Shown: positions 17,393 through 44,830 of the stretch, piece by piece
Layout of the letters: each line of letters opens with the position of its first letter
Numbering within the stretch: position 1 is the first letter of the stretch
Position numbers and translations under genes: made by a program
Assembly: GCA_034670305.1 (NCBI GenBank)
Contig: JAXMNT010000024.1
Location: 44,658-108,657 of the forward strand
Direction: 5' to 3'
Length of the DNA stretch: 64,000 bases
From: Deltaproteobacteria bacterium
GTDB taxonomy: Bacteria > Myxococcota_A > Polyangia > Polyangiales > Houyiibacteriaceae
The notes under the pieces: model-generated
Databases searched by the model: none
What the model was told of the DNA's origin: nothing
What the model saw: the letters and a program-made list of their open reading frames with translations, nothing else

Positions 17393-17442
17393 CTCGTCTC
17401 CATGTCTCTCTTGAGAATGCAGGAAACGGGTGAGCGGGTGCC

Positions 17443-17525
17443 CATCGCGTTCCCTACGCCGGTACAAACCGGATCAGGTTCGACGGGTACGTCTCAGCGC
17501 CCCATTGGGCGCGCCCCGCGCGATG
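17443..17525 (-). promoter_or_regulatory. TPP riboswitch
   Basis: Minus strand reads GGGG..GCTGAGA..ACCCGTCGAACCTGATCCGGTTTGTACCGGCGTAGGGA, the THI-box consensus, directly upstream of thiC. Confidence 0.95.
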
Positions 17526-17583
17526 CCTAGGACATAGTGCACGTGGGCGGCGTTGGGAAGGGCCGCGGCGGGAAAGGTCGGCT

Positions 17584-31523: not shown

Positions 31524-31805
31524 GTGCTCTCACTACGCAAATTGACCGACTCTGCCACCGACTGGCGCCGTTTCCTGCATGCCGAGCCCATCGGCGAATC
31601 CGACGTCCAGCGCCTCAGCTGGACCGAGATCTCCCGCCGCCCCGAGTTCGAGGGCCGCTGGGTCGCACTGCACGACTGCCGCTTCGACGAGCGCACCGGT
31701 CGCGCCACCGAGGGCGACCTCGTGGACGCGGACGAGGACCTGTCCACGCTCTGCGCCCGGGTTCAGGACCGCTGGAAGAACTGCGCGATCCTCTTCGTGC
31801 ACTGA
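31524..31805 (+). CDS. small hypothetical protein
   Basis: GC3-rich codons; LSWTEI..EFEGRWVAL..C..GDLVDADEDL..LC; start uncertain. Confidence 0.6.
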   Translation: MLSLRKLTDSATDWRRFLHAEPIGESDVQRLSWTEISRRPEFEGRWVALHDCRFDERTGRATEGDLVDADEDLSTLCARVQDRWKNCAILFVH

Positions 31806-31815
31806 TTTCCTGACG

Positions 31816-32098
31816 CTACGGGCCTGGCTCGCTTCGCTCGACTGGCGGCCCTGCGTTCTGGCGTCGCAAGGCCTGGCTCTGAGCACCTTCACGTGCTCGC
31901 CGCCTGTTCGTTGGGGTCACTGAAAAGGCATCTGGGGCACTTGGCGGCTGTGCGCGGTGAAGGCACTCCCGCCGCCTCTACGACTCACTTGGGGAGTGCA
32001 CCAGTTGCTCGGCCTGCGGCCTGCGCAGGTGACGGGTGGAGTCGCCTGACTCGCTGGCGCTGTTCGTGCCTGGCTCGCTTCGCTCGACTGGCGGCCCT
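31816..32098. repeat. modular palindromic repeat element, copy A
   Basis: Three hairpin modules homologous to 36878..37375; module H1 present at both ends. Confidence 0.85.
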
Positions 32099-32681
32099 AG
32101 CGGCTCGAGAGCAGGGTGTTCAAGCGGCCACGCCGCATTCGGTGGTGGAGCTCGACCGCGAACGTGAAGCCGGCGAAGGCCAGCATCATGATCCCGGTCG
32201 GCACCATGCCGATGCGCAGGTGGACGAGACCGAAGACCAGCAGCCAGACCGCGGCCATGCGCGACCAGGTCTCGGAGGGAATGCCCGAAAGGTCGAAACG
32301 CGGGGTCCGGTAGAGAGCGGCGACGAACTCGTCGATCCGTGGGTCCTGAATCGGGGCGACCGCGTCGCCCGTCCGGTGGAGGGGCACGCCGCAGCGGTGG
32401 CACTCGAGCCCATGGTCGAACCGGTCACCGCAACTGCGACAGCTGAGCGGGGCTTCCGCGACGGTGGCCCGCACTTCCGCAACGCCGGTACGGATCCGCT
32501 TCAAGGCCCGGACGAAGCTGGCGTGGGCCTGCTTGAACGTCTCTTCCGCAGCGGGATCACCAGGGTTGGCGTCTGGATGGAGTCGTCGGGCGAGGCGGCG
32601 CCAGCTGGCGCGGAGGGTGGGTTCGTCCTGAATGTGCGCGAATCGGCTGGCCATCGTCTCTCCCTGAAGCACGTCCGACAT
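32097..32681 (-). CDS. J-domain protein with zinc ribbon and C-terminal TM segments
   Basis: LRASWRRLARRLHPDANPGDPAAEETFK (HPD motif); CRSC..CHRC; two hydrophobic helices. Confidence 0.75.
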   Translation of the reverse strand: MSDVLQGETMASRFAHIQDEPTLRASWRRLARRLHPDANPGDPAAEETFKQAHASFVRALKRIRTGVAEVRATVAEAPLSCRSCGDRFDHGLECHRCGVPLHRTGDAVAPIQDPRIDEFVAALYRTPRFDLSGIPSETWSRMAAVWLLVFGLVHLRIGMVPTGIMMLAFAGFTFAVELHHRMRRGRLNTLLSSR

Positions 32682-32806
32682 CGCCCACCCCGAAAGGTTC
32701 CCCGAAAGGTTCGTTGGAGGGATGGGGATTGTTCGACTTGGCTGAGCGTCGACGCGTTGGGGTGCCCAACACAGCGATTCTACGCTGCCGATCGCCCCGA
32801 ACTCCC

Positions 32807-34804
32807 CTACATCGGTCCCATGGGGACTTCGATGCGGGGCGGCACGAGGAAGTAGACCAGCCGTGAGTCGAGCGGAGAGCCGTCCCCGAACACCGTGAGG
32901 CGGGCCCGGTAGACGAGAGGCGAGGTGGCCGGCTCCTGGAAGTCGTTCATCACCGGCACGACGTCCCAGCACACGTCCGTGCCCGGTGTCAGGGCGGGGA
33001 ACGCGTCGTCGTGCCCGTCCGCGTCGGTGTCCTCGGTCGCGAGGCCTGCGGTGCAGCGCCCGACGCCGCTCGTGTTGGTCTCCAGGTAGTCGATGAAGCG
33101 CAGGGCGTCCCCATCGTCCTCCGGCTCGTCCGTCGGTTCGATGGTGACCCGGATCGGTACGCCATTGACGATCTCGTTGATGGCGCCCGTCACCGCGGCG
33201 CGCACCGCGGCACCGTCTCCGTCGAAGACCAGCGGGCTGCCATCGGAGGCAAGGGAGTCGCTCTCGGTGGCGATCGAACGGAGGTTGGCGCGTGGCTCGT
33301 GGCCGGAGTCCGCGTCGACCCCGACGAAGGTGATCGACTGAGCGAGCAGCCGGGAACCAGCCGCCGCCGCGCTGTCGACCGCGCCGCAGCTGCACTCGTC
33401 CTGTTCGTCGGTGATGGTGACCAGGATGCGGACCGCTTCTTCGCGGTACCGAGGACAACCGATGGTCCCGGAACCACCGCATCGGGCCCCGCTGCATGCG
33501 GTCGGATCCGCCACGCATGCGACCGACTGGTACAGGCTCTCGTTGGCGCCGCCGCCGCTGGCCGAACCGGGGATCGCGCTCTGGGTGCTCGCCGGGTTCG
33601 GCTGGATGCCGAGCAGGTTGCGGTAGCTGTTGCCGTTCCCCTCGTAGGTTCCGACCCCTGTGTACACGGAGGCCACGCAGGAGCTCATGCCTGGGTCGGC
33701 GATGCAGGTGCCTTCGAAGCTGCACACCTGGCCGGCCGCGCACATGTCGTCTCCCATGCAGGGCGTGCCGAAGTCCTCGCACGTCAGATCGGAGATGATG
33801 TCTCGAACCGCGCTGCGCATCGCGCTGATCTCACCGTCCATCGATCCGGTGGTGTCGAACAAGAAGTACACGTCCGCGATCTGGATGTTGGTCCGGAACT
33901 CGAGCGTGTCGCGGTCCGGGGTCGGGGCCTCCTCGAACGGCACGACGAACACGAAGTCGCCGCGCGTGCGCGGGTTGTCGTCGGCGGCGAGCGGGTCGGT
34001 GCCGGCCGCGATCTCGATCAGATCGCTGACGCCGTCGCCATCGCTGTCCCCGTCCACCCTGGACGTGCCGGCGATGCGCTCGTCCAGGTCGCTCACCCCA
34101 TCGTTGTCGGAGTCCGGGTCCCGGAAGTCGGGGATGCCGTCCATGTCCGTGTCGACCGGAGGCGTGCTCAACTCGCGGTCGCCGGCTTCGTCGGCGTCGG
34201 ACACACCATCTGCGTCGCTGTCCAGGTCCGCCACGTCCAGGATGCCGTCCGCGTCGGTGTCCAGGTCGCGCTCGTCGCCATCCATGATCGTGTCGTCGTC
34301 CGAGTCGGGATCCTTGAAGTCGGGGATGCCGTCTCCGTCTGTGTCCACCCCAGGCCCACCGAGCGCGAGTTCCGCCGCGTCGTTCACGCGGTCGTTGTCG
34401 TCGTCGAGGTCCGCGAAATCGGGGCGGCCGTCGCCGTCCGAGTCCGCGACCGACTCTTCGAAGTCGAGGATCCCGTTGTCGTCGGAGTCTTCGTCCCGGA
34501 AGTCCGGGGTGCCGTCCGCGTCCGCATCCCGCGGAGGGGTGCGTGGGTCGTCGTCGCCCGCTTCGACCGAGTCGGAGATCCCATCCCCGTCGGAATCGAG
34601 ATCTTGGTAGTCGGGGGTTCCGTCTCCATCGGTGTCCGTCCCGTCCCGCCGACCTTCGTCCTCGTCCGAGATCCCGTCGCCGTCCTCGTCCTCATCGCTT
34701 CCAGGGGCATCGACCATGCCTCCGCCATCCCGTCCCGGGGTGCCGGGTGGGGCAGGCGAGCATGCAAACGCGAGCACGAACACGAAGAGAAAGCCGTTCC
34801 GCAT
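32807..34804 (-). CDS. CglD-like lipoprotein: thrombospondin type-3 Ca-binding repeats plus VWA domain
   Basis: Lipobox AFAC; many DxDxDGxPDFxDxDSDxDG repeats; DVYFLFDTTGSM MIDAS-like motif; ITDE. Confidence 0.82.
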   Translation of the reverse strand: MRNGFLFVFVLAFACSPAPPGTPGRDGGGMVDAPGSDEDEDGDGISDEDEGRRDGTDTDGDGTPDYQDLDSDGDGISDSVEAGDDDPRTPPRDADADGTPDFRDEDSDDNGILDFEESVADSDGDGRPDFADLDDDNDRVNDAAELALGGPGVDTDGDGIPDFKDPDSDDDTIMDGDERDLDTDADGILDVADLDSDADGVSDADEAGDRELSTPPVDTDMDGIPDFRDPDSDNDGVSDLDERIAGTSRVDGDSDGDGVSDLIEIAAGTDPLAADDNPRTRGDFVFVVPFEEAPTPDRDTLEFRTNIQIADVYFLFDTTGSMDGEISAMRSAVRDIISDLTCEDFGTPCMGDDMCAAGQVCSFEGTCIADPGMSSCVASVYTGVGTYEGNGNSYRNLLGIQPNPASTQSAIPGSASGGGANESLYQSVACVADPTACSGARCGGSGTIGCPRYREEAVRILVTITDEQDECSCGAVDSAAAAGSRLLAQSITFVGVDADSGHEPRANLRSIATESDSLASDGSPLVFDGDGAAVRAAVTGAINEIVNGVPIRVTIEPTDEPEDDGDALRFIDYLETNTSGVGRCTAGLATEDTDADGHDDAFPALTPGTDVCWDVVPVMNDFQEPATSPLVYRARLTVFGDGSPLDSRLVYFLVPPRIEVPMGPM

Positions 34805-34900
34805 GACGGCAAGGGTACTGGTTTCAAAGGCCGCCGGCCGTTGTCGGCACGAATTGATAGACATGCCGACCTGTTCGCACATTTCAGCCGTCGGTTGCGG

Positions 34901-35647
34901 TCAGACCCGGAACGCTGCGAGCGCGAAGAAAGGGTCCCCGATCAGGCGTTTCTTGCCCCGCAACAGCTCGTTGTGTTGCCCCACCACGTCCCGGCAGGCT
35001 CGAACCACCTGCTCGGCGGGGGTCTCGTGCTTGAGGAACTCGGCCAGCTGGGCATCCGACGCGCGGGCCATGCCCATCACGCCCTGGTGCTGCAGCATCA
35101 CGAGATCCCCCGTGGAGACGGTGACCTCCATCAGGTTGGGCACCCAGGGTCCCTCCCGCTGCCCATAGCTCGAGACCACGTACGGAAGCGGGTTGCCTGG
35201 GGTCTGAAGGCAGGTCCGATGCAGTCCGCGGTAGCCAAGAACCAGTGTGTCGATGGACCCGAGCCAGCCCACACGGAGTCGGTTGCCTTCCAGAACGGCG
35301 ACGGCCAACGAGGCCGACGGCCCGCCCACCATGTCGTCTTCGGGGTGGGGCTTGGCGCCTTCCAGGAACGCGGCGCGGACCAGGCCGAACAGCCCGACCA
35401 TGCCTGGGAGCGCGGCGGTCCGGTAGTCCTCGCCGCGGACCCAGCGGTGCACGGCGTCGAGCATCGGTGCGGAGATGGTCGCCGCCCCGGAATCCCAGCC
35501 GCACGTGCTCGCGGAGCTGGCAGCGACGACGAGGCGCTGGCCATCCGAGAAGACCCGGACGAAGTCGGTCGCGGAGGTGTCGTTGACGGCAAACCACACG
35601 CCATCCTGGTGATGCAGGGGCGCGTCGGCGGTGTCTAGATGGGACAT
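34901..35647 (-). CDS. PP2C-fold-like protein lacking the catalytic aspartates
   Basis: ASLAVAVLEGNRLRVGWLGS, VSTGDLVMLQHQGV and GDPFFALAAFRV align by eye with PP2C motifs. Confidence 0.55.
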   Translation of the reverse strand: MSHLDTADAPLHHQDGVWFAVNDTSATDFVRVFSDGQRLVVAASSASTCGWDSGAATISAPMLDAVHRWVRGEDYRTAALPGMVGLFGLVRAAFLEGAKPHPEDDMVGGPSASLAVAVLEGNRLRVGWLGSIDTLVLGYRGLHRTCLQTPGNPLPYVVSSYGQREGPWVPNLMEVTVSTGDLVMLQHQGVMGMARASDAQLAEFLKHETPAEQVVRACRDVVGQHNELLRGKKRLIGDPFFALAAFRV

Positions 35648-35654
35648 CCCGAAC

Positions 35655-36821
35655 TCAATCGAGCGCCGTGCGCAGCAAGAGCAGCACCGCGAACGCCTCG
35701 AGCGCGTCCCGGATGTCGATCGGACTCCCGTCCCGAGCCCGCCGCACGATCTTTCGGAACGCCAGCCAGCGCACACCCGGCACGCCGAGCCAAGGAACCA
35801 GCAGCGCGCCCTGGTCGACCGGGCTGCCCGCGTCGCGCGCCACCGCCCGGAGCACGTCGCCCACGAGTCCGTCGACCCGGACGATCGCATCCGACAACCT
35901 CGCGGCGGCCAGGTCGGCTTCGATCTGGCGTATCGCTTCTCCCTGCGCATCGGGAAAGAGCGGCGCCCAACTCGGGCCGGGAGGCGACGCACGAAACGGA
36001 ATCGAAGAACGGCTCAAAGCCTGGCCGCCACCACCAGGACGTGGCGCGGACTTCAAGGGTTCCACGGCGGAGGGGAACGTGGAGTTGCCGACGGGCAAGG
36101 TCCCCTGGGCGATGGCCCGCTCAATGCTCGTTTTCCAGACGGCTTCCGTGGCCGCACCGATCTGTTCCTCGAGCGCCTTTTCTGCGCGTGAGAACTCGGG
36201 GGACTCCGGTGCCGACTTCTGGGGTCCGCCGAGCACACCCCGGGCCTCGAGGTCGTCGAGCGATGCCTGCACGAGCACATCGAGCGCCGTCATCACCCCG
36301 TCGCCGTCCGTCGCGATGGTCCCAAAGCTCGGTCGGCCATCCGGGTTGAGAGAGCGGTTCAGTTCGTCCAGCCCCATCACGCCGGGCAGGTCGCGTTTGT
36401 TGAACTGGAAGACGATTGGCGTGTCTTCGAGGCTCCGCCCCTGCTCCGAGAGGTTCTGGACGAGGTTCTCCATGCTCTCGAGGTTGGCGTCGAACCGTTC
36501 GCGCTGCGAGTCCGCGACGAACACCAGTCCGTCCACGCCGGTGAGCACCAGCTTGCGGGTCGCATTGAAGTAGACCTGGCCCGGGACCGTGAAGAGCTGT
36601 AGCCGGACGTGATGCTCCCGGACCTCGTGGGCCCGCAACGGCAGAAAGTCGAAGTACAAGGTGCGGTCCACCGGGGTCGCGAGGCTCACCAGCTGTCCAC
36701 GAGACTCCGGTGGGGAGGCGGCATGAATGTGCTGTAGAGAGGTCGTCTTTCCGCCGAGACCAGGTCCGTAGTAGACCAGCTTGACCAGCAACTCCCGAGT
36801 GAGTGGATTGACTTGGGCCAC
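35655..36821 (-). CDS. MglA-family small GTPase paralog with a long C-terminal extension (SofG-like)
   Basis: KLVYYGPGLGGKTT, PVDRTLYFDFLP, TVPGQVY, FNKRD; about 190 extra C-terminal residues. Confidence 0.88.
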   Translation of the reverse strand: MAQVNPLTRELLVKLVYYGPGLGGKTTSLQHIHAASPPESRGQLVSLATPVDRTLYFDFLPLRAHEVREHHVRLQLFTVPGQVYFNATRKLVLTGVDGLVFVADSQRERFDANLESMENLVQNLSEQGRSLEDTPIVFQFNKRDLPGVMGLDELNRSLNPDGRPSFGTIATDGDGVMTALDVLVQASLDDLEARGVLGGPQKSAPESPEFSRAEKALEEQIGAATEAVWKTSIERAIAQGTLPVGNSTFPSAVEPLKSAPRPGGGGQALSRSSIPFRASPPGPSWAPLFPDAQGEAIRQIEADLAAARLSDAIVRVDGLVGDVLRAVARDAGSPVDQGALLVPWLGVPGVRWLAFRKIVRRARDGSPIDIRDALEAFAVLLLLRTALD

Positions 36822-36877
36822 GAGGTCGCGAGCGTGCACCGCGAGCGCTCAGACATCAACGGGCTTCCTTATTGCCA

Positions 36878-37375
36878 CTACGGGCCTGGCCCGCTTCGCG
36901 GGACTGGCGGCCCTAATTCGCGCCCGTCGCTGCGTGCACGTGCTCGCCGCCCATGCACTTGGAGGTGTTGAAGAAGCACTTGGAGCATCTGGCGGCTGCG
37001 CGCGTCCACGCGCTCCTATCGGCGCTCTCGGGGCCCACTTGGAGAGTGCACCAGTTGCTCGGCCTGCGGCCTGCGCAGGTGCACGGGTGGAGTTTGATTT
37101 CTTGGTACGACGGGCCTGGCCCGCTTCGCGGGACTGGCGGCCCTAATTCGCGCCCTTGTTTTTCGGCGGGGGAAGGGTTCCCCCTCCGCCCGTTGGGCTC
37201 CTCCCCACCTGGGCTGCGTGCACGTGCTCGCCGCCCATGCACTTGGAGGTGTTGAAGAAGCACTTGGAGCATCTGGCGGCTGCGCGCGTCCACGCGCTCC
37301 TATGCCTGGGGGCACGGCCCCCAAACCCCGTCCCGGTGACACGGCTGGCTCGCTTCGCTCGGCTGCACCGTGTCG
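36878..37375. repeat. modular palindromic repeat element, copy B (internally duplicated)
   Basis: Exact 91-bp duplication (36929-37019 = 37213-37303); about 46-bp duplication (starting 36880 and 37110); homology to copy A. Confidence 0.9.
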
Positions 37376-37493
37376 GTTCGGCGCTTGCTGGGGGCGAATG
37401 GGTGGGTTCTGACGCAACCCTCCACCCGGCTGGAGGTTTGCGCTATCGTCCGCCCGGCCCCGCGTGGGGTGGAACAGGACGAGGACAGGTCAG

Positions 37494-39107: not shown

Positions 39108-42100
39108 TCAGTGCGCGTTCCTGTCCATGAGCGCTTCGAGCGTCGTCCCGCTGTCCCGTTCGGAGTCCGTCAGGAGCTGCGCCGGGTCCTGCCGCCACGC
39201 GTTCAGGTCGAGCGGCAGCACGTACACCTGGCCTCCGGTCGCGAAGATCATGCGTCCGTCCGGGGTCCAACTCGCCGCGGTGGTGCGCTCATCGATGTCC
39301 AGCCGCGCTTCGAGGACACCACGCGCGTTGTAGACGCGCGCACCTCGATCGGTCGTCACGAGCATGCGCTCTCCGTCGGGGGACCAGGCCACCGAGCGGG
39401 CAACCTCGCCGTCCAAGAGCCGTTGCCCGCGCACGCGTTCGCCGTTCTGCGGATCCCACCCGCGCAGTTGCCCTTCCAGATCGACGGTGGTCAGTTCGCT
39501 CCCGTCCGGATGCCAGCTGGCGTCGTAGATGCGCGCTTCGTGCGCGCTCCAGCGGCGGATGACGCGGGCGTTGCCAGCGTCGATCAACGTGACGTGACCA
39601 TCGAACCCGGCGCTCGCGAGGAACTCGCCCGACGGATGGAAGCCCACCCACCATGTGCGCCCGTCCGCAATGGGGACACTTCGCAGTGCGCCGCTCGCCT
39701 GATCGCGCAGCAGGATGGCACCGTCCCCGCTCGCAATCGCGAGCGTCTGCCGATCCGGCGAAAGCGTCAGGGCGTCGCCAAAGTGGGGCAGCCGCGCGAC
39801 CAGCTCGCTGGTGCGCGCCGCAAGATCGTGAACCCGCAGGGTTCGGTCCATCCCGGAGGTGGCCACCGTGTCGGCGTCGACGAACACGGCGGCCCGGACC
39901 GGCGCGGTGTGCCCTTCGAAGACGTGGTCCATGCGGCCCGTGCGTGCGTCCCAGACACGCACGACCGCGTCGTCGCCCCCCGCCAGCAGCCAGTGCGAAT
40001 CGGGGCTCCAGACGGCGACATCGATCCGGCCGCGACTCGGGGCCACGAACGACACCCCCTCGCGGGTCGTTGGGATCTCCCACTCGACCACCCGGCGATC
40101 CACGCCCCCGCTGAACAGCCGGCTCCCCGACGAATTGAAGGCGAGTGCGGCGATCCTCCCCTCATGCCCGTCGAACCGCGCCACCGGTCGCATGCTCTCG
40201 GCGTCGATGATGGTGATCTCGTCGGCGGCCAGGGCGAGCCATCGTCCATCGGGAGACACGGTCACGATGTCGTAGCCGTCCCCGAATCGCGTCTCGGCGA
40301 CCAGGGCGCCGCCCGTGCGGTCGAATCGCCGCAGGACGCCCTCGTCATCCACGGTGACGATCTCCTGCGGCGTCAGATCGAGGCCTCGCATCCTGGAGCG
40401 GGCCCCGTTGACCAAACCGCCTCCGCCTCCGATCCGTCGAACGACCGAGGCGGAGGGCAGGTCGACCACGACCGCCTCGGGACCTGAACTGCTCAACACG
40501 GCGACGGACGCCTCGCGGGGGCAGAGGAGGCGCCAGGGAACGGCAGTCGTTGCTTCGATCGTCTGCCGCATCTCGCCGGTGTCTGCGTCGAACACGGCGA
40601 TCTGTCCGTCGCTCCCGGCACCCAGCAAGGTTCCGTCTGCAGCGAAACACACCCCGTACACCCGGTCGGCGGGGTGCTCGACAATCCGGAGCAACTCGCC
40701 TCGCGGGAACGACCAGATCCGAATTTCACCGTCGTACGCGCTCGTCGCGAGCCGTGCCGATGCTGAATCGAGCGCCGCCTGAAAGACCGTCCCACCGTGT
40801 CCTTCGAGCACTTGCTGTACGTGCCCGGTGTTCAGATCCCAGATCACCGCGCGCCGGTCTGCCGAAGTGGTCACAAGCCATCGGTCGTCGTCCGAGACGA
40901 GCACGTCGTAGATCCAGTCTTCGTGCTCGCCGAACGTCCGCGCCTGCTTGGCGAAACGCAGAGCGCGGGCCGCCGCCCAGGTGGCCGCGGGGCCCGCGAG
41001 CCAATCCCCGACCTGCGTGGTCTCACGCAGCGCGCGGTTGGGCCCGCGTGGATGCTCGGGGGACTCCGCCATCGCGGCCGCGGCAAACAACTCGGCGCCG
41101 AGGTGGTCGCCCCTTCGAAGACGACGCACGGCGCTCTGCCAGTGGACTTGGGCAAGGCGTTCGTGAGTCTCGCGCTCCTGGCCGCGCGCGCGCCGCTCGG
41201 CAACGACCGCTCGTTCTCGCTCGGCCTCGGCCACCTGCTGCTCTCGAACGATGAACACCACCGCAGCGACGGCGAGGACCACCAGGGAAGCCAGGGCCCA
41301 GGTCAGCGCCCGATTGCGTCGTACGAAGCGCGTCACGAGCTCCCACGACGTGTACTCGTAGGCTCCGACAAGGCGGCCCGTTTGAAAGGCTTCGAGGTCG
41401 CGCGCCAGCTCCCGTGCGTCGCGGTAACGTTCGGTCCGATCGCGCGCCATCGCCTTGTCGATGATGCTCACCAGATCGGGGGGCGCGTTCGGCGCCCGCT
41501 CGGACAGGGGCACCGGCGGTCCCTCGAGAAGCTGGCGGAGCGCATTGCCCTCGTAGGGAGGCCGTCCGCAGAGCGAGTGGTAGAGCAGGGCGCCGAGGGA
41601 GTACACATCCGCTCGCGCGTCGAGCGGCTCGGCACGCGCTTGCTCAGGCGGCATGTAGGCGGGCGTGCCCATGATGGACCCTTCGCGGGTGAGCGTGTCG
41701 TCCTCGTTGGCCGCGTCCAGGGTGTCGCGCGCGTCCGCCACATCGTCGGTGTCGCCGATGCCTTTGGCGAGTCCCCAGTCGATGACGATCGTCTCCCCGA
41801 ACTCGCCGAGCAGGACGTTGGCCGGCTTGAGATCGCGGTGAATGATCCCCTTCTCATGCGCGTACGCAATCGCCTCGACCGCCGGGAGAATTCGCGGGAC
41901 GAGCGCCAGCCGCGCTCCCGGATCGGACGCCTCGTCGACGACGACGTCGAAGGCTCGACCGCCGACGAGCTTCATCGCGAAGAAGGGGCGACCGTCCGGC
42001 CACTGACCAACTTCGTACACCGGCACGATGCTCGGATGTTGAAGTTGTGCCGTGATTCGCGCCTCGCGTTCGAAGCGCAGCCGCTGCTGAGGCCTCGGAT

Positions 42101-42320
42101 CGCCGAGGAGCTCTTTCACGGCAACCAGTCGTCCGGTGCGCGTGTCCCGCGCCTCACGCACGACGCCCATGCCACCTCGCGCGACATCGTCGCCGATGAC
42201 GTAGTGCGACGGGTCGACGGTTTTCAGCGAACCGTCTACGTCGGCGTCGCTCGTCGTGTTGTCGTCGTCGGCGGCGAGTGTCCGCGCCGCTTCCAACGAG
42301 TCGCGACCGGGGTCACTCAC
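39108..42320 (-). CDS. Ser/Thr protein kinase with TM segment and WD40 repeats
   Basis: ARGGMG, VAVK, HRDLKPAN, DWG, GTPAYMPPEQ; GH...WD repeats. Confidence 0.94.
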   Translation of the reverse strand: MSDPGRDSLEAARTLAADDDNTTSDADVDGSLKTVDPSHYVIGDDVARGGMGVVREARDTRTGRLVAVKELLGDPRPQQRLRFEREARITAQLQHPSIVPVYEVGQWPDGRPFFAMKLVGGRAFDVVVDEASDPGARLALVPRILPAVEAIAYAHEKGIIHRDLKPANVLLGEFGETIVIDWGLAKGIGDTDDVADARDTLDAANEDDTLTREGSIMGTPAYMPPEQARAEPLDARADVYSLGALLYHSLCGRPPYEGNALRQLLEGPPVPLSERAPNAPPDLVSIIDKAMARDRTERYRDARELARDLEAFQTGRLVGAYEYTSWELVTRFVRRNRALTWALASLVVLAVAAVVFIVREQQVAEAERERAVVAERRARGQERETHERLAQVHWQSAVRRLRRGDHLGAELFAAAAMAESPEHPRGPNRALRETTQVGDWLAGPAATWAAARALRFAKQARTFGEHEDWIYDVLVSDDDRWLVTTSADRRAVIWDLNTGHVQQVLEGHGGTVFQAALDSASARLATSAYDGEIRIWSFPRGELLRIVEHPADRVYGVCFAADGTLLGAGSDGQIAVFDADTGEMRQTIEATTAVPWRLLCPREASVAVLSSSGPEAVVVDLPSASVVRRIGGGGGLVNGARSRMRGLDLTPQEIVTVDDEGVLRRFDRTGGALVAETRFGDGYDIVTVSPDGRWLALAADEITIIDAESMRPVARFDGHEGRIAALAFNSSGSRLFSGGVDRRVVEWEIPTTREGVSFVAPSRGRIDVAVWSPDSHWLLAGGDDAVVRVWDARTGRMDHVFEGHTAPVRAAVFVDADTVATSGMDRTLRVHDLAARTSELVARLPHFGDALTLSPDRQTLAIASGDGAILLRDQASGALRSVPIADGRTWWVGFHPSGEFLASAGFDGHVTLIDAGNARVIRRWSAHEARIYDASWHPDGSELTTVDLEGQLRGWDPQNGERVRGQRLLDGEVARSVAWSPDGERMLVTTDRGARVYNARGVLEARLDIDERTTAASWTPDGRMIFATGGQVYVLPLDLNAWRQDPAQLLTDSERDSGTTLEALMDRNAH

Positions 42321-43681: not shown

Positions 43682-44830
43682 ATGTCCAGTGATTCCCAAA
43701 CCACGCCCGCACATGTCTCGTCCGGCGTCGACGAGCCGCAACCGCCCCCTGTCGTCGATGCACAGTCTGTGTCGTCCGGACTCGAAGGCGTGGTGGCGGC
43801 CGAGACCTCGGTCAGCGAGGTCGATGGCGAACGCGGCGTACTGATCCTGGCAGGCCAGCCGGTTCAGGCGTTCTCCCGCCACAGCTTCGAGGAGGTGATC
43901 GCCATCCTGCGCACCGTCTCGGGTGAGACCCGCCCCCGCGCACTCGACCCGCAGGTCATCCAGGTCCAACTCGCGCTCGCTCGGAAGGAAGCCTTCGCGC
44001 GCCTCGATCATCTCGGAGACGCGCTCGACGCGCCCGACGCGATGTCGGCGTTGCGCGCGGGCATCGCGCACTTCGACACGCGCGACGAAGACGCCGACGT
44101 CCAACTGGCGGGTGCGATCCCGGTGCTCGCGGCGGCCTGGCAACGCCGGCAGCGCGGCCAAGCCGCCATCGCTCCATCGTCGGGCGCAGCACACGCGGAG
44201 GACATGCTCCGTTTGTACGCGACCGGCGCGTCCCCGGAAGCCGCGGCGGCTCTCGGCGCGTACCTCGCGACGGTGGTGGACCACGGGCTCAACGCCTCCA
44301 CCTTTGCGGCGCGCGTGGTGGCATCGACCGCGTCCGACACGACGTCTGCGGTGGTGGCCGCCATCGGTGCGCTCAAGGGACCGCTGCATGGAGGCGCACC
44401 CGGTCCCGTGCTGGACATGCTCGATGCGATCGGCACCGCGGACCGAGCCGAGGATTGGATCACGGCCGAGCTCGCGGCGGGCCGCCGGATCATGGGCATG
44501 GGCCACCGGGTCTACAAGGTCCGAGACCCGCGCGCGTCGGCGCTTGAAGCAGCGGCTGCGAAGCTTGGCGGGTCGGGTCGCATCGCCCTGACCCATGCCG
44601 TCGAGTCGGCCGCCCAGCGCGTCCTCGAACGCGTCAAACCAGGACGCCGGCTGCGGGCCAACGTGGAGATGTGGACCGCGGTCCTGCTCGACGCGCTCGG
44701 CATCGACCGCGCCCTCTTCACCGCGACCTTCGCCGCATCCCGCGTCGTCGGCTGGTGCGCCCACGTCCGCGAGCAGCGGCTCCACGGCCGCCTGCTGCGC
44801 CCTTCGTCCAAGTACATCGGCCCGCGGTAG
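43682..44830 (+). CDS. citrate synthase/methylcitrate synthase family protein
   Basis: [54 protein letters not shown]. Confidence 0.92.

Follow-up and report, generated by a model that had tools for sequence, protein, structure and literature searches.

The stretch of DNA studied here is a window of 64,000 nt from a deltaproteobacterial genome placed in the Polyangiales (Myxococcota_A, family Houyiibacteriaceae), covering positions 44,658 to 108,657 of the forward strand of contig JAXMNT010000024.1 (C24 in what follows) in assembly GCA_034670305.1. Within this window lie two arrays of short hairpin modules, copy A (31806-32099) and copy B (36864-37374), in a region of 66-68% G+C. An earlier note, made from the letters of the window alone, had reported that both loci carry the same modules in the same order and orientation, and a repeat search of the window agreed with it. 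We show below that the two arrays are members of a large family of intergenic repeats dispersed over the whole genome. Three genes separate them, encoding a DnaJ-domain protein, a protein with TSP3 repeats and VWA similarity, and a small GTPase, and none of these is a mobility gene.

Anatomy of the two arrays

Copy A reads leader-H1-H2-H3-H1 on the plus strand and lies between convergent open reading frames (ORFs), a 93-aa ORF ending at 31805, in which no Pfam family was found, and the minus-strand DnaJ-domain ORF. Its T-rich leader (31806..31819) begins right after the stop codon of the upstream ORF (31803-31805) and ends in CTAC. Then come an H1 hairpin of subfamily III (31820..31851), located by nhmmer and by typing, whose inner arms CTCGC and GCTCG contain two mismatches; the long H2 hairpin (31886..31963), with a basal stem CCTTCAC/GTGAAGG, invariant arms and a hypervariable apex; and the H3 hairpin (31996..32033), whose 3′ arm is one C short of that of the family in the alignment. 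A tail (32034..32064), conserved in most units according to alignment columns 263-300 and the k-mer profile, leads to a closing H1, also of subfamily III (32065..32099) and 97% identical to the first one. The terminal CTA of the array (32097-32099) is the stop codon of the minus-strand DnaJ-domain ORF. The GACTC/GAGTC extension that the earlier note had described for H3 is present (31981-31985 and 32039-32043). A 15-nt insertion in the linker between H1 and H2 (31853-31867) is absent from the other 38 units aligned (columns 69-83).

Copy B has the longer order leader-H1-H2-H3-H1-X1-H2-X2H1b, again on the plus strand, and lies between divergent ORFs, the minus-strand Arf/MglA-like small GTPase starting at 36839 and a plus-strand ORF starting at 37464. 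The T-rich leader (36864..36881, delimited by k-mer profile and logo) ends in CTAC and precedes an H1 of subfamily II (36882..36913), in which the inner arms CCCGC and GCGGG are compensated. H2 (36933..37010) stands on a basal stem CGTGCAC/GTCCACG with one C-C mismatch, and is followed by H3 (37046..37084; repeat search, fold and pair counts) and by a second H1 of subfamily II (37111..37144) with a T-rich leader of its own in front (37095-37112). The array then goes on with an X1 module (37161..37211; nhmmer, 36 genome copies), a second H2 (37213..37303) and an X2H1b module (37307..37374; 115 genome copies), all of them on the plus strand. This second H2 is 100% identical over 91 nt to 36929-37019, and is the product of either a local duplication or an assembly collapse. 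X2H1b consists of two hairpins, the second of which has a 13-nt core in common with H1; the H1-like stretch at 37340-37373, with 68% identity to H1, is this second hairpin and belongs to a different module.

As repeats of the window, the four 34-nt H1 copies (31819-31852 and 32065-32098 in copy A, 36881-36914 and 37111-37144 in copy B) are 91-97% identical, and the two 46-nt H3 copies (31986-32031 and 37036-37081) are 98% identical; H2 has diverged between the arrays, and the basal stems quoted for it in the earlier note are found in both. That note had overlooked the second H1 that closes each unit, the continuation of copy B through X1, H2 and X2H1b, and the degenerate T-rich leader ending in CTAC that precedes each first H1. 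In a logo of 49 first H1 copies, T makes up 46-83% at positions -17 to -8, and the hairpin foot then reads C (67%), T (77%), A (97%) and C (97%). The genome counts of 14-mers climb from 1-2 to 16-128 precisely at the borders 31808-32098 and 36868-37373.

In public sequencing data the stretch is present in four DNA runs of one study, and no RNA run is listed as containing it. The contigs of four metagenome runs containing the organism stop inside H1 and none spans copy A or copy B, so that the internal order of both copies rests on the given assembly. These contigs gave no evidence on excision or local order, and the joints listed for them derive from other genomic copies. Summed contig depth over the modules is approximately 30-90 times that of the flanks in the four runs, which is consistent with a high copy number.

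A genome-wide family with a module grammar

The assembly comprises 7.93 Mb in 105 contigs and is 96% complete. Iterated nhmmer searches of it with the five modules of copy B gave 499 matches, of which 496 were kept after removal of overlaps: 191 H1, 115 X2H1b, 78 H3, 76 H2 and 36 X1. They are distributed in 232 arrays and span 25,780 nt, that is, 0.33% of the genome. The BLASTN-type check for further copies that the earlier note had proposed is answered by some 230 arrays. A 30-nt H1 pattern, with up to 3 mismatches, found 165 matches in the genome (79 forward and 86 reverse), and the reversed pattern found 0. Together with the jump in 14-mer counts at the array borders, this places the repeat far above chance.

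The family is assembled from at least five hairpin modules, each beginning with a short T-rich leader, and these are arranged according to a grammar. The canonical unit, leader-H1-H2-H3-tail-H1, measures about 270 nt, and H1-H2-H3-H1 occurs 40 times in consecutive order. H1, an imperfect palindrome of 32 nt whose 5′ tetranucleotide, CTAC, is conserved, is also found alone and is the junction or boundary element of the arrays. H2 almost always sits between H1 and H3 and resembles an inverted doublet in which a conserved pair of arms flanks a free-running spacer, while H3 is a 39-nt hairpin. A TTTCT-like leader starts all three modules that occur independently. Such single modules make up many of the arrays (70 solo X2H1b, 64 solo H1 and 10 solo X1); 20 arrays consist of H1-H2-H3-H1 alone, and many are compound, for example (H1-H2-H3)n-H1 with X1 or X2H1b intercalated. 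All modules lie on one strand in 81 of the 84 multi-module arrays.

Two other kinds of repeat were noticed in the same genome. In a further family, related to X1, a longer double hairpin has about 70 nt of conserved sequence behind it; this family forms tandem arrays with a period of about 75 nt (C2:163716-163930, C17:36125, C21:80719, C23:4488, C54:26319 and C69:28808). At about 17950-17990 of C68 there is a hexanucleotide microsatellite, (GGCTTC)n, with 14-mers that are present more than 500 times across the genome.

Position relative to genes

Genes were called with a crude ORF picker based on G+C content at third codon positions, which misses genes; it yielded 4,566 ORFs and a coding fraction of 75%. 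Against this genome-wide value, only 12% of module bases overlap called genes, and the family is hence intergenic. Among the 232 arrays, 41 lie between convergent, 21 between divergent and 68 between tandem genes; those more than 600 nt from a called gene (82) or at a contig end (20) were excluded from the context counts. The ratio of convergent to divergent contexts, 41:21, differs from that of the genome, 738:728 (p = 0.015). The repeat shares the direction of the genes in 36 tandem contexts and opposes it in 32, and thus has no orientation preference.

Hairpins and compensatory changes

The hairpins were assessed in an alignment of 39 units and another of 40 H2 copies; L023, a 380-nt unit with an insertion, was omitted from the former and kept in the latter. 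A hand-set structure of 17 pairs for H2 had 95.5% of its cells paired and a covariation score of 0.144, compared to 0.044 in column shuffles (0 of 500 reached 0.144) and at most 0.045 with slid partners. The earlier note had argued for compensatory change in the basal stem of H2, and three pairs bear it out across the family: pair 13-97 (CG 26, AU 9, GC 3), pair 15-95 (GC 22, CG 9, UA 6) and pair 16-94 (CG 10, GC 9). The basal helix, 7 bp long, comes in at least four complementary versions, including CCTTCAC/GTGAAGG, CATCGAC/GTCGATG and CCTGCAC/GTGCAGG, and in versions with one C-C mismatch each, CGTGCAC/GTCCACG and CCTGCAC/GTCCAGG.

For the 34 pairs of H1 and H3 taken together, 95.9% of cells are paired and the covariation score is 0.075, compared to 0.031; changes on both sides occur in 8 pairs, compared to 3.0 ± 0.7 in shuffles (0 of 500). 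Compensation is visible in H3 (GC 23, CG 15) and in the inner stem of H1 (UA 22, CG 10), where form I, CTCGC/GCGAG, has 110 copies and form II, CCCGC/GCGGG, which is compensated, has 26. The hairpins are thus supported by compensated pairs in the basal stem of H2, in H3 and in H1.

The apex of H2 behaves differently. It measures 37-41 nt and is hypervariable, with 62 different sequences among 73 parsed copies and a column entropy of 1.03-1.18 bits, compared to 0.06-0.22 for H1. The earlier note had also seen compensation in the inner stem of H2, but native apex halves fold at -21.6 kcal/mol, compared to -21.3 kcal/mol for chimeric apices combining the halves of different copies (p = 0.43, n = 62) and -19.6 kcal/mol when the halves are shuffled; this is therefore not a property of the family. 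Hence the argument from the basal stem stands and that from the inner stem fails.

Lineage restriction and absence of coding or known RNA signals

Searching 40 relatives with copy A returned no real match, only four matches of 24-33 nt at chance level (E 5e-5 to 1e-3), and none of 400 other genomes of the order matched the unit of copy B at E ≤ 1e-5, with two candidates scored per genome. The 30-nt H1 pattern, with up to 3 mismatches, was found 0 times in 87 genomes of the same family, and the exact 24-nt core of H3 had 0 matches in a public genome collection in which the source genome is possibly not included. Among the genomes searched, the repeat family is restricted to its source lineage. 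Within the collection of papers searched, no description of such repeats in myxobacteria was found.

A decayed protein-coding gene, which the earlier note had named as the finding that would speak against its reading, is not what lies here: the seven ORFs overlapping the arrays match no Pfam family at E ≤ 0.1, and column variability in the 39-unit alignment shows no period-3 pattern. That note had recognized no RNA family either, and Rfam at gathering threshold matches a single element in the window, a thiamine pyrophosphate (TPP) riboswitch on the minus strand at 17433-17528 (RF00059, 71.6 bits, gathering score 54.3). At E ≤ 1, over copy B and its surroundings, there is only a chance match to mir-598, outside the array. 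No sigma-70-like promoter or intrinsic-terminator pattern was found at either locus. Complementarity of the H2 apex, considered as a guide, to its own flanks is not above that of controls (longest match 7.49 and 7.50 nt, respectively).

Duplication, exchange and insertion of modules

Identical hypervariable H2 apices were found within arrays in four groups, one of which includes copy B, and at distant loci with different flanks in another four. The former indicate tandem duplication inside arrays. Loci L017 and L022 share the same H2, including a rare compensated pair, and yet differ in H1 type and in H3 type, so modules are exchanged independently of one another. Within arrays, adjacent H1 copies share their type in 37 of 52 cases, compared to an expected 45.6% (p = 1.7e-4).

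For X1, filled and empty sites could be compared. In the inverted repeats that flank the Y1 transposase genes described below, X1 lies between ...CACGGCAGT and TCAAAGCGG..., in the upstream arm on contig C11 and in the downstream arm on C15, its position and orientation with respect to the arm being alike in both. The matching arms at the other Y1 loci examined are uninterrupted, and no bases are duplicated at the X1 insertion. X1 is also found between H1 and H2 and within H1, and X2H1b between H2 and H3 and between H1 and H2, in each case co-oriented with the host module.

Candidate enzymes

The earlier note had postulated an HUH-type enzyme encoded elsewhere, and the assembly indeed contains 11 Y1_Tnp genes (on C20, C31, C38, C68, C1, C11, C59, C14, C55, C15 and C63; loci L001-L008 and L050). 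All are open frames of 233-249 aa that score above the Pfam Y1_Tnp cut-off and have the HUH and Tyr motifs. Their best NCBIfam match is REP_Tyr_transpos at 38.4 bits, compared to a cut-off of 80, and IS200 gives 23.8 bits for a cut-off of 55; a search by sequence found no solved relative. Every one of these genes lies within a unit of about 1.25 kb, between inverted repeats of 150-190 nt, the units being 68-92% identical in DNA sequence, and to judge from this layout the unit appears to behave like an insertion sequence (IS). This Y1 clade was matched in one of 24 relatives of the same family, weakly (two matches, best E 4.8e-15, 33-38% identity); these 24 genomes also lack the repeats. The clade is multi-copy in four other families of the order.

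Other mobility functions are scarce. The assembly has no IS110, TnpB, rve or serine recombinase genes, and no Y2 match either, for which the positive control likewise gave none; it has three tyrosine recombinases and three DDE_Tnp_1 fragments, of which two lie at contig ends. Since multi-copy IS elements are often lost from such assemblies, little weight attaches to this scarcity. No recurrent gene that could be an autonomous partner was found between neighbouring arrays, whether oppositely or equally oriented. When the 354 ORFs lying no more than 500 nt from an array were clustered, nothing emerged but ordinary large families and the three group-2 Y1 genes, with no recombinase family among them. 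The genome has three reverse transcriptase genes, none of them near an array by coordinates.

Gene neighbourhood in the window

Around the two arrays, the ORF at 32807-34882 carries six copies of a 74-nt coding repeat on the minus strand (34080-34636; 68-74% identity, spaced 84-108 nt apart), which encode Asp-rich, TSP3-type calcium-binding repeats of the bacterial kind; the 691-aa protein also has weak VWA matches that fall below the cut-off. The MglA/Arf-like small GTPase (35655-36839, minus strand) has 394 aa, a long extension at the C terminus included, and at 39108-42320, also on the minus strand, a Ser/Thr kinase of 1070 aa with WD40 repeats is encoded. Together with the TSP3 repeats, this kinase and the GTPase fit the gene content typical of myxobacteria.

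Comparison with known repeat systems

Repetitive extragenic palindromic sequences (REPs) are described as having more than 100 copies per genome, as forming bacterial interspersed mosaic elements (BIMEs) of alternating orientation, as keeping their palindromy through complementary mutations and as carrying a GT(A/G)G head. They are also described as flanking, in inverted orientation, the genes of REP-associated tyrosine transposases (RAYTs), reported at 1.3-1.8 copies per replicon, with abundant flanking 16-mers in groups 2 and 3 only. The family described here shares much with them: short G+C-rich imperfect palindromes that are extragenic and exceed 100 copies (191 H1 by nhmmer, 165 by pattern), mosaic clusters with defined linkers, complementary changes that keep the palindromy, a preference for convergent intergenic regions, a 5′ tetranucleotide and a Y1 HUH relative in the genome. 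Y1 REP transposases (TnpA-REP) are reported to act on one strand of a folded hairpin, to require a conserved tetranucleotide 5′ of the stem and to cut at a nearby CT (PMC8266576), and the layout of H1 matches that of the substrates described there. On the other hand, the modules are co-oriented (81 of 84 arrays) rather than alternating, and the host is a myxobacterium, whereas REPs and BIMEs are those of Gammaproteobacteria. Eleven diverged Y1 copies with private inverted repeats of 150-190 nt also differ from the one or two copies flanked by a dispersed repeat that are described for RAYTs (PMC5581495). In sum, the family shares with REPs the hairpin, the 5′ tetranucleotide, the CT-rich leader and, as seen for X1, the lack of duplication, but fails on the head sequence, the alternating orientation and the RAYT flanks.

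Other systems resemble single aspects of it. As in REP doublets forming hairpins (REPINs), H2 is a conserved pair of imperfectly complementary arms around a poorly conserved spacer, making one long hairpin (PMC3337134). Unlike REPINs, H2 is not the unit that flanks a RAYT and its arms are not found as a free REP. The closest architectures are those of BOX elements of Streptococcus pneumoniae, with ordered, co-oriented modules, and of neisserial intergenic mosaic elements (NIMEs), with units bounded by a short repeat. BOX elements have the layout boxA-boxB-boxC, and are described as non-autonomous and transcribed. The likeness to them is architectural only: co-oriented modules in a fixed order with a variable number of internal ones, stable predicted folds, intergenic position, about a hundred copies and no transposase of their own. 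They belong to another phylum, and the unit here ends in a direct copy of the module with which it starts. The likeness to NIMEs, as these are described, is also architectural only, larger units being bounded by a short repeat and forming arrays. The neisserial dRS3 repeat, of about 20 bp, bounds RS units and is a target of phage and IS integration; no phage or IS integration partner was found here. Non-autonomous IS200/IS605 elements, as far as their published descriptions go, have in common with the family hairpins near both ends on one strand (H1, in direct orientation, in 40 units) without terminal inverted repeats, the lack of target duplication, which was seen here for X1 only, and a guide-like tetranucleotide 5′ of the stem. 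They differ in that for our family no fixed target motif was seen 5′ of the left end, the orientation bias is modest at most, and no TnpB was found.

Proposed mechanism and evidence against it

What we describe is a new family within a well-known class of bacterial 'selfish' repeats and not a new RNA gene, and it is very probable that the family is a selfish or neutral mosaic repeat. Our preferred account, held tentatively and a little short of an even chance, is that both loci are members of a lineage-specific non-coding mosaic repeat family, REP/BIME-, NIME- or BOX-like, that probably spread as single-stranded hairpins. In this mechanism the modules would spread as single-stranded DNA hairpins through strand-specific cut-and-join, with no target duplication, and new modules would land at the foot of existing hairpins, which would account for the co-oriented arrays. 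Arrays would be remodelled by recombination between H1 copies, either growing in tandem or collapsing to a solo H1. The catalyst would act in trans and would most plausibly be the 11-copy, RAYT-like Y1 (HUH) family, this being the weakest step. Movement of the repeat as single-stranded DNA is in itself somewhat less likely than not, and that the Y1 proteins of this genome move H1-H2-H3 is doubtful.

Several observations weigh against this account. The first set concerns the enzyme. It speaks for the Y1 family that 4 of its 11 genes have modules no more than 500 nt away, compared to 7.75% of all called genes (p = 0.008), but these modules are exclusively X1 and X2H1b and never H1-H2-H3. The flanks of the Y1 genes match only each other (53 BLAST rows, coverage of about 10-26 per position), and no similarity to H1, H2 or H3 was found in the flanks of any of the 11. 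The earlier note had proposed to look for RAYT-type genes beside other copies, and such genes were found near X1 and X2H1b only. Its suggestion of a REP/REPIN-like single-stranded element mobilized by an HUH enzyme survives in part: the repeat is structured and non-coding and Y1 genes are present, but they are not flanked by H1, H2 and H3, so the link that defines REP-RAYT systems is missing. The head of H1 is moreover CTAC and not GT(A/G)G, GTAG being found only on the other strand, 3′ of the stem.

The insertion sites and the strand data are also less than favourable. The three kinds of site at which X1 is inserted have no visible target motif in common, and no filled-versus-empty pair was found for H1-H2-H3-H1. 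Of the 41 solo X2H1b copies that were parsed, 14 have ATAT on either side, suggestive of a palindromic target or of a 4-bp target duplication. At locus L001, downstream of its Y1 gene (C20:45163-45310), an X2H1b doublet breaks the 3′ part of an IS5-like transposase frame at GATAT|C. Both resemble a MITE (a miniature transposable element with inverted repeats) of DDE type with target duplication, so that the modules may not share one mechanism and X2H1b may use a separate route. The IS flanking the doublet has 16-64 genome copies by 14-mer count. With replication direction taken from GC skew on contigs only, array orientation is associated with the local skew sign (odds ratio 2.6 at ±10 kb, p = 0.0007; 2.5 at ±25 kb, p = 0.002; 2.1 at ±50 kb, p = 0.03), a modest bias to which solo X2H1b contributes most and which composite arrays do not show (p = 0.36-0.80; 16/13 and 17/17, p = 0.80). 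The orientation bias of IS200/IS605 elements with replication is much stronger than this association. IS608 and ISDra2 are reported to target the lagging-strand template (PMC6006769).

Folding gives similar reasons for caution. The two strands are nearly equal in folding; RNA parameters give the plus strand a slight advantage, and DNA parameters favour neither consistently. The count of further pair types is not above shuffles in the test of H2 or in that of H1 and H3, and the compensations trace to a few events at the level of subfamilies. Template-switch 'palindrome correction' could yield them without selection. Subfamily III of H1 (CTCGC/GCTCG; 24 of 172 typed copies, copy A included) has a 3′ arm that is now a direct copy of the 5′ arm, and thrives despite the loss of two inner-stem pairs.

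Alternative explanations

If H1 were a double-stranded site for site-specific recombination, as integron attC sites or neisserial dRS3 might suggest, circular H2-H3-tail-H1 cassettes would integrate at a chromosomal H1 and their excision would leave a solo H1. This would explain why the first H1 has a leader, internal and closing H1 copies being preceded by the cassette tail, as well as the 64 solo H1 copies, the (H1-H2-H3)n-H1 arrays, the tendency of adjacent H1 copies to be of one type (37/52) and, given an asymmetric core site, the co-orientation of 81/84 arrays. However, the only candidates to catalyse it are three tyrosine recombinases, none of them adjoining an H1-H2-H3 array, with no serine recombinase or IS110-type enzyme; the initial spread of some 190 H1 sites is left unexplained, and compensated stem changes favour a folded single strand over a duplex site. 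We regard this explanation as quite unlikely. Movement as classical MITE-like elements by a DDE transposase, for instance that of the IS5-like element with fragments at contig ends, would make the hairpins incidental and seems improbable to us. It is suggested by the ATAT flanks (14/41), by the interruption at GATAT|C and by DDE_Tnp_1 fragments at three places, two of which are contig ends. Yet the ends of H1-H2-H3-H1 are direct and not inverted repeats, ATAT flanks are confined to those solo X2H1b copies, X1 inserts without duplication, and co-orientation in 81/84 arrays is not expected from DDE-type insertion.

The earlier note had offered an undescribed non-coding RNA as one of two readings, and the modules could be multi-copy structured RNA genes or cis motifs, such as stabilizers of mRNA 3′ ends, with the H2 apex as a specificity loop. 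Conserved and partly compensated stems, G-U pairs fixed on the plus strand in H2 and H3 (39/39 each), the slightly better folding of that strand with RNA parameters (H3: 36/39) and the enrichment between convergent genes all point this way. Nevertheless, we consider it very unlikely: there are about 230 copies whose orientation is independent of the flanking genes (36 same, 32 opposite), neither locus has a promoter- or terminator-like site, Rfam is silent on the array of copy B even at E ≤ 1, the repeat was not found in any related genome searched, including 87 of the same family, and the H2 apex has halves that do not co-vary and no excess complementarity to its own flanks (7.49 and 7.50 nt). 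Finally, long ORFs overlap the arrays, as expected at 68% G+C, and contigs of public runs break in H1, as they would if the arrays were a decayed gene or an artefact of metagenome assembly. Such an origin is extremely improbable given the lack of Pfam families in the 7 overlapping ORFs and of any period-3 pattern, the occurrence of units at 40 places with different unique flanks, and a module depth of about 30-90 times that of the flanks in four runs.

Implications

Returning to spread as single-stranded hairpins, the full form of the proposal is a REP-like system of another logic, in which a multi-copy, IS-like Y1 clade cuts and joins several leader-bearing hairpin modules as single strands, and these insert directionally, without target duplication, at the feet of other modules, the outcome being co-oriented, self-nesting and reassorting mosaics. 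In this entirety we think it unlikely. If true, it would extend Y1-driven repeat biology to the Myxococcota and to an architecture that is neither GTAG-headed nor alternating.

A rich, lineage-restricted 'repeatome' of about 500 modules and 25.8 kb is hereby documented in an uncultured myxobacterium. Its repeats break short-read assemblies at H1, and could pass for RNA genes. Co-orientation, nesting, conserved arms around a free spacer and an expanded Y1 clade make it a tractable case for the origin and spread of REP-like repeats outside Gammaproteobacteria.

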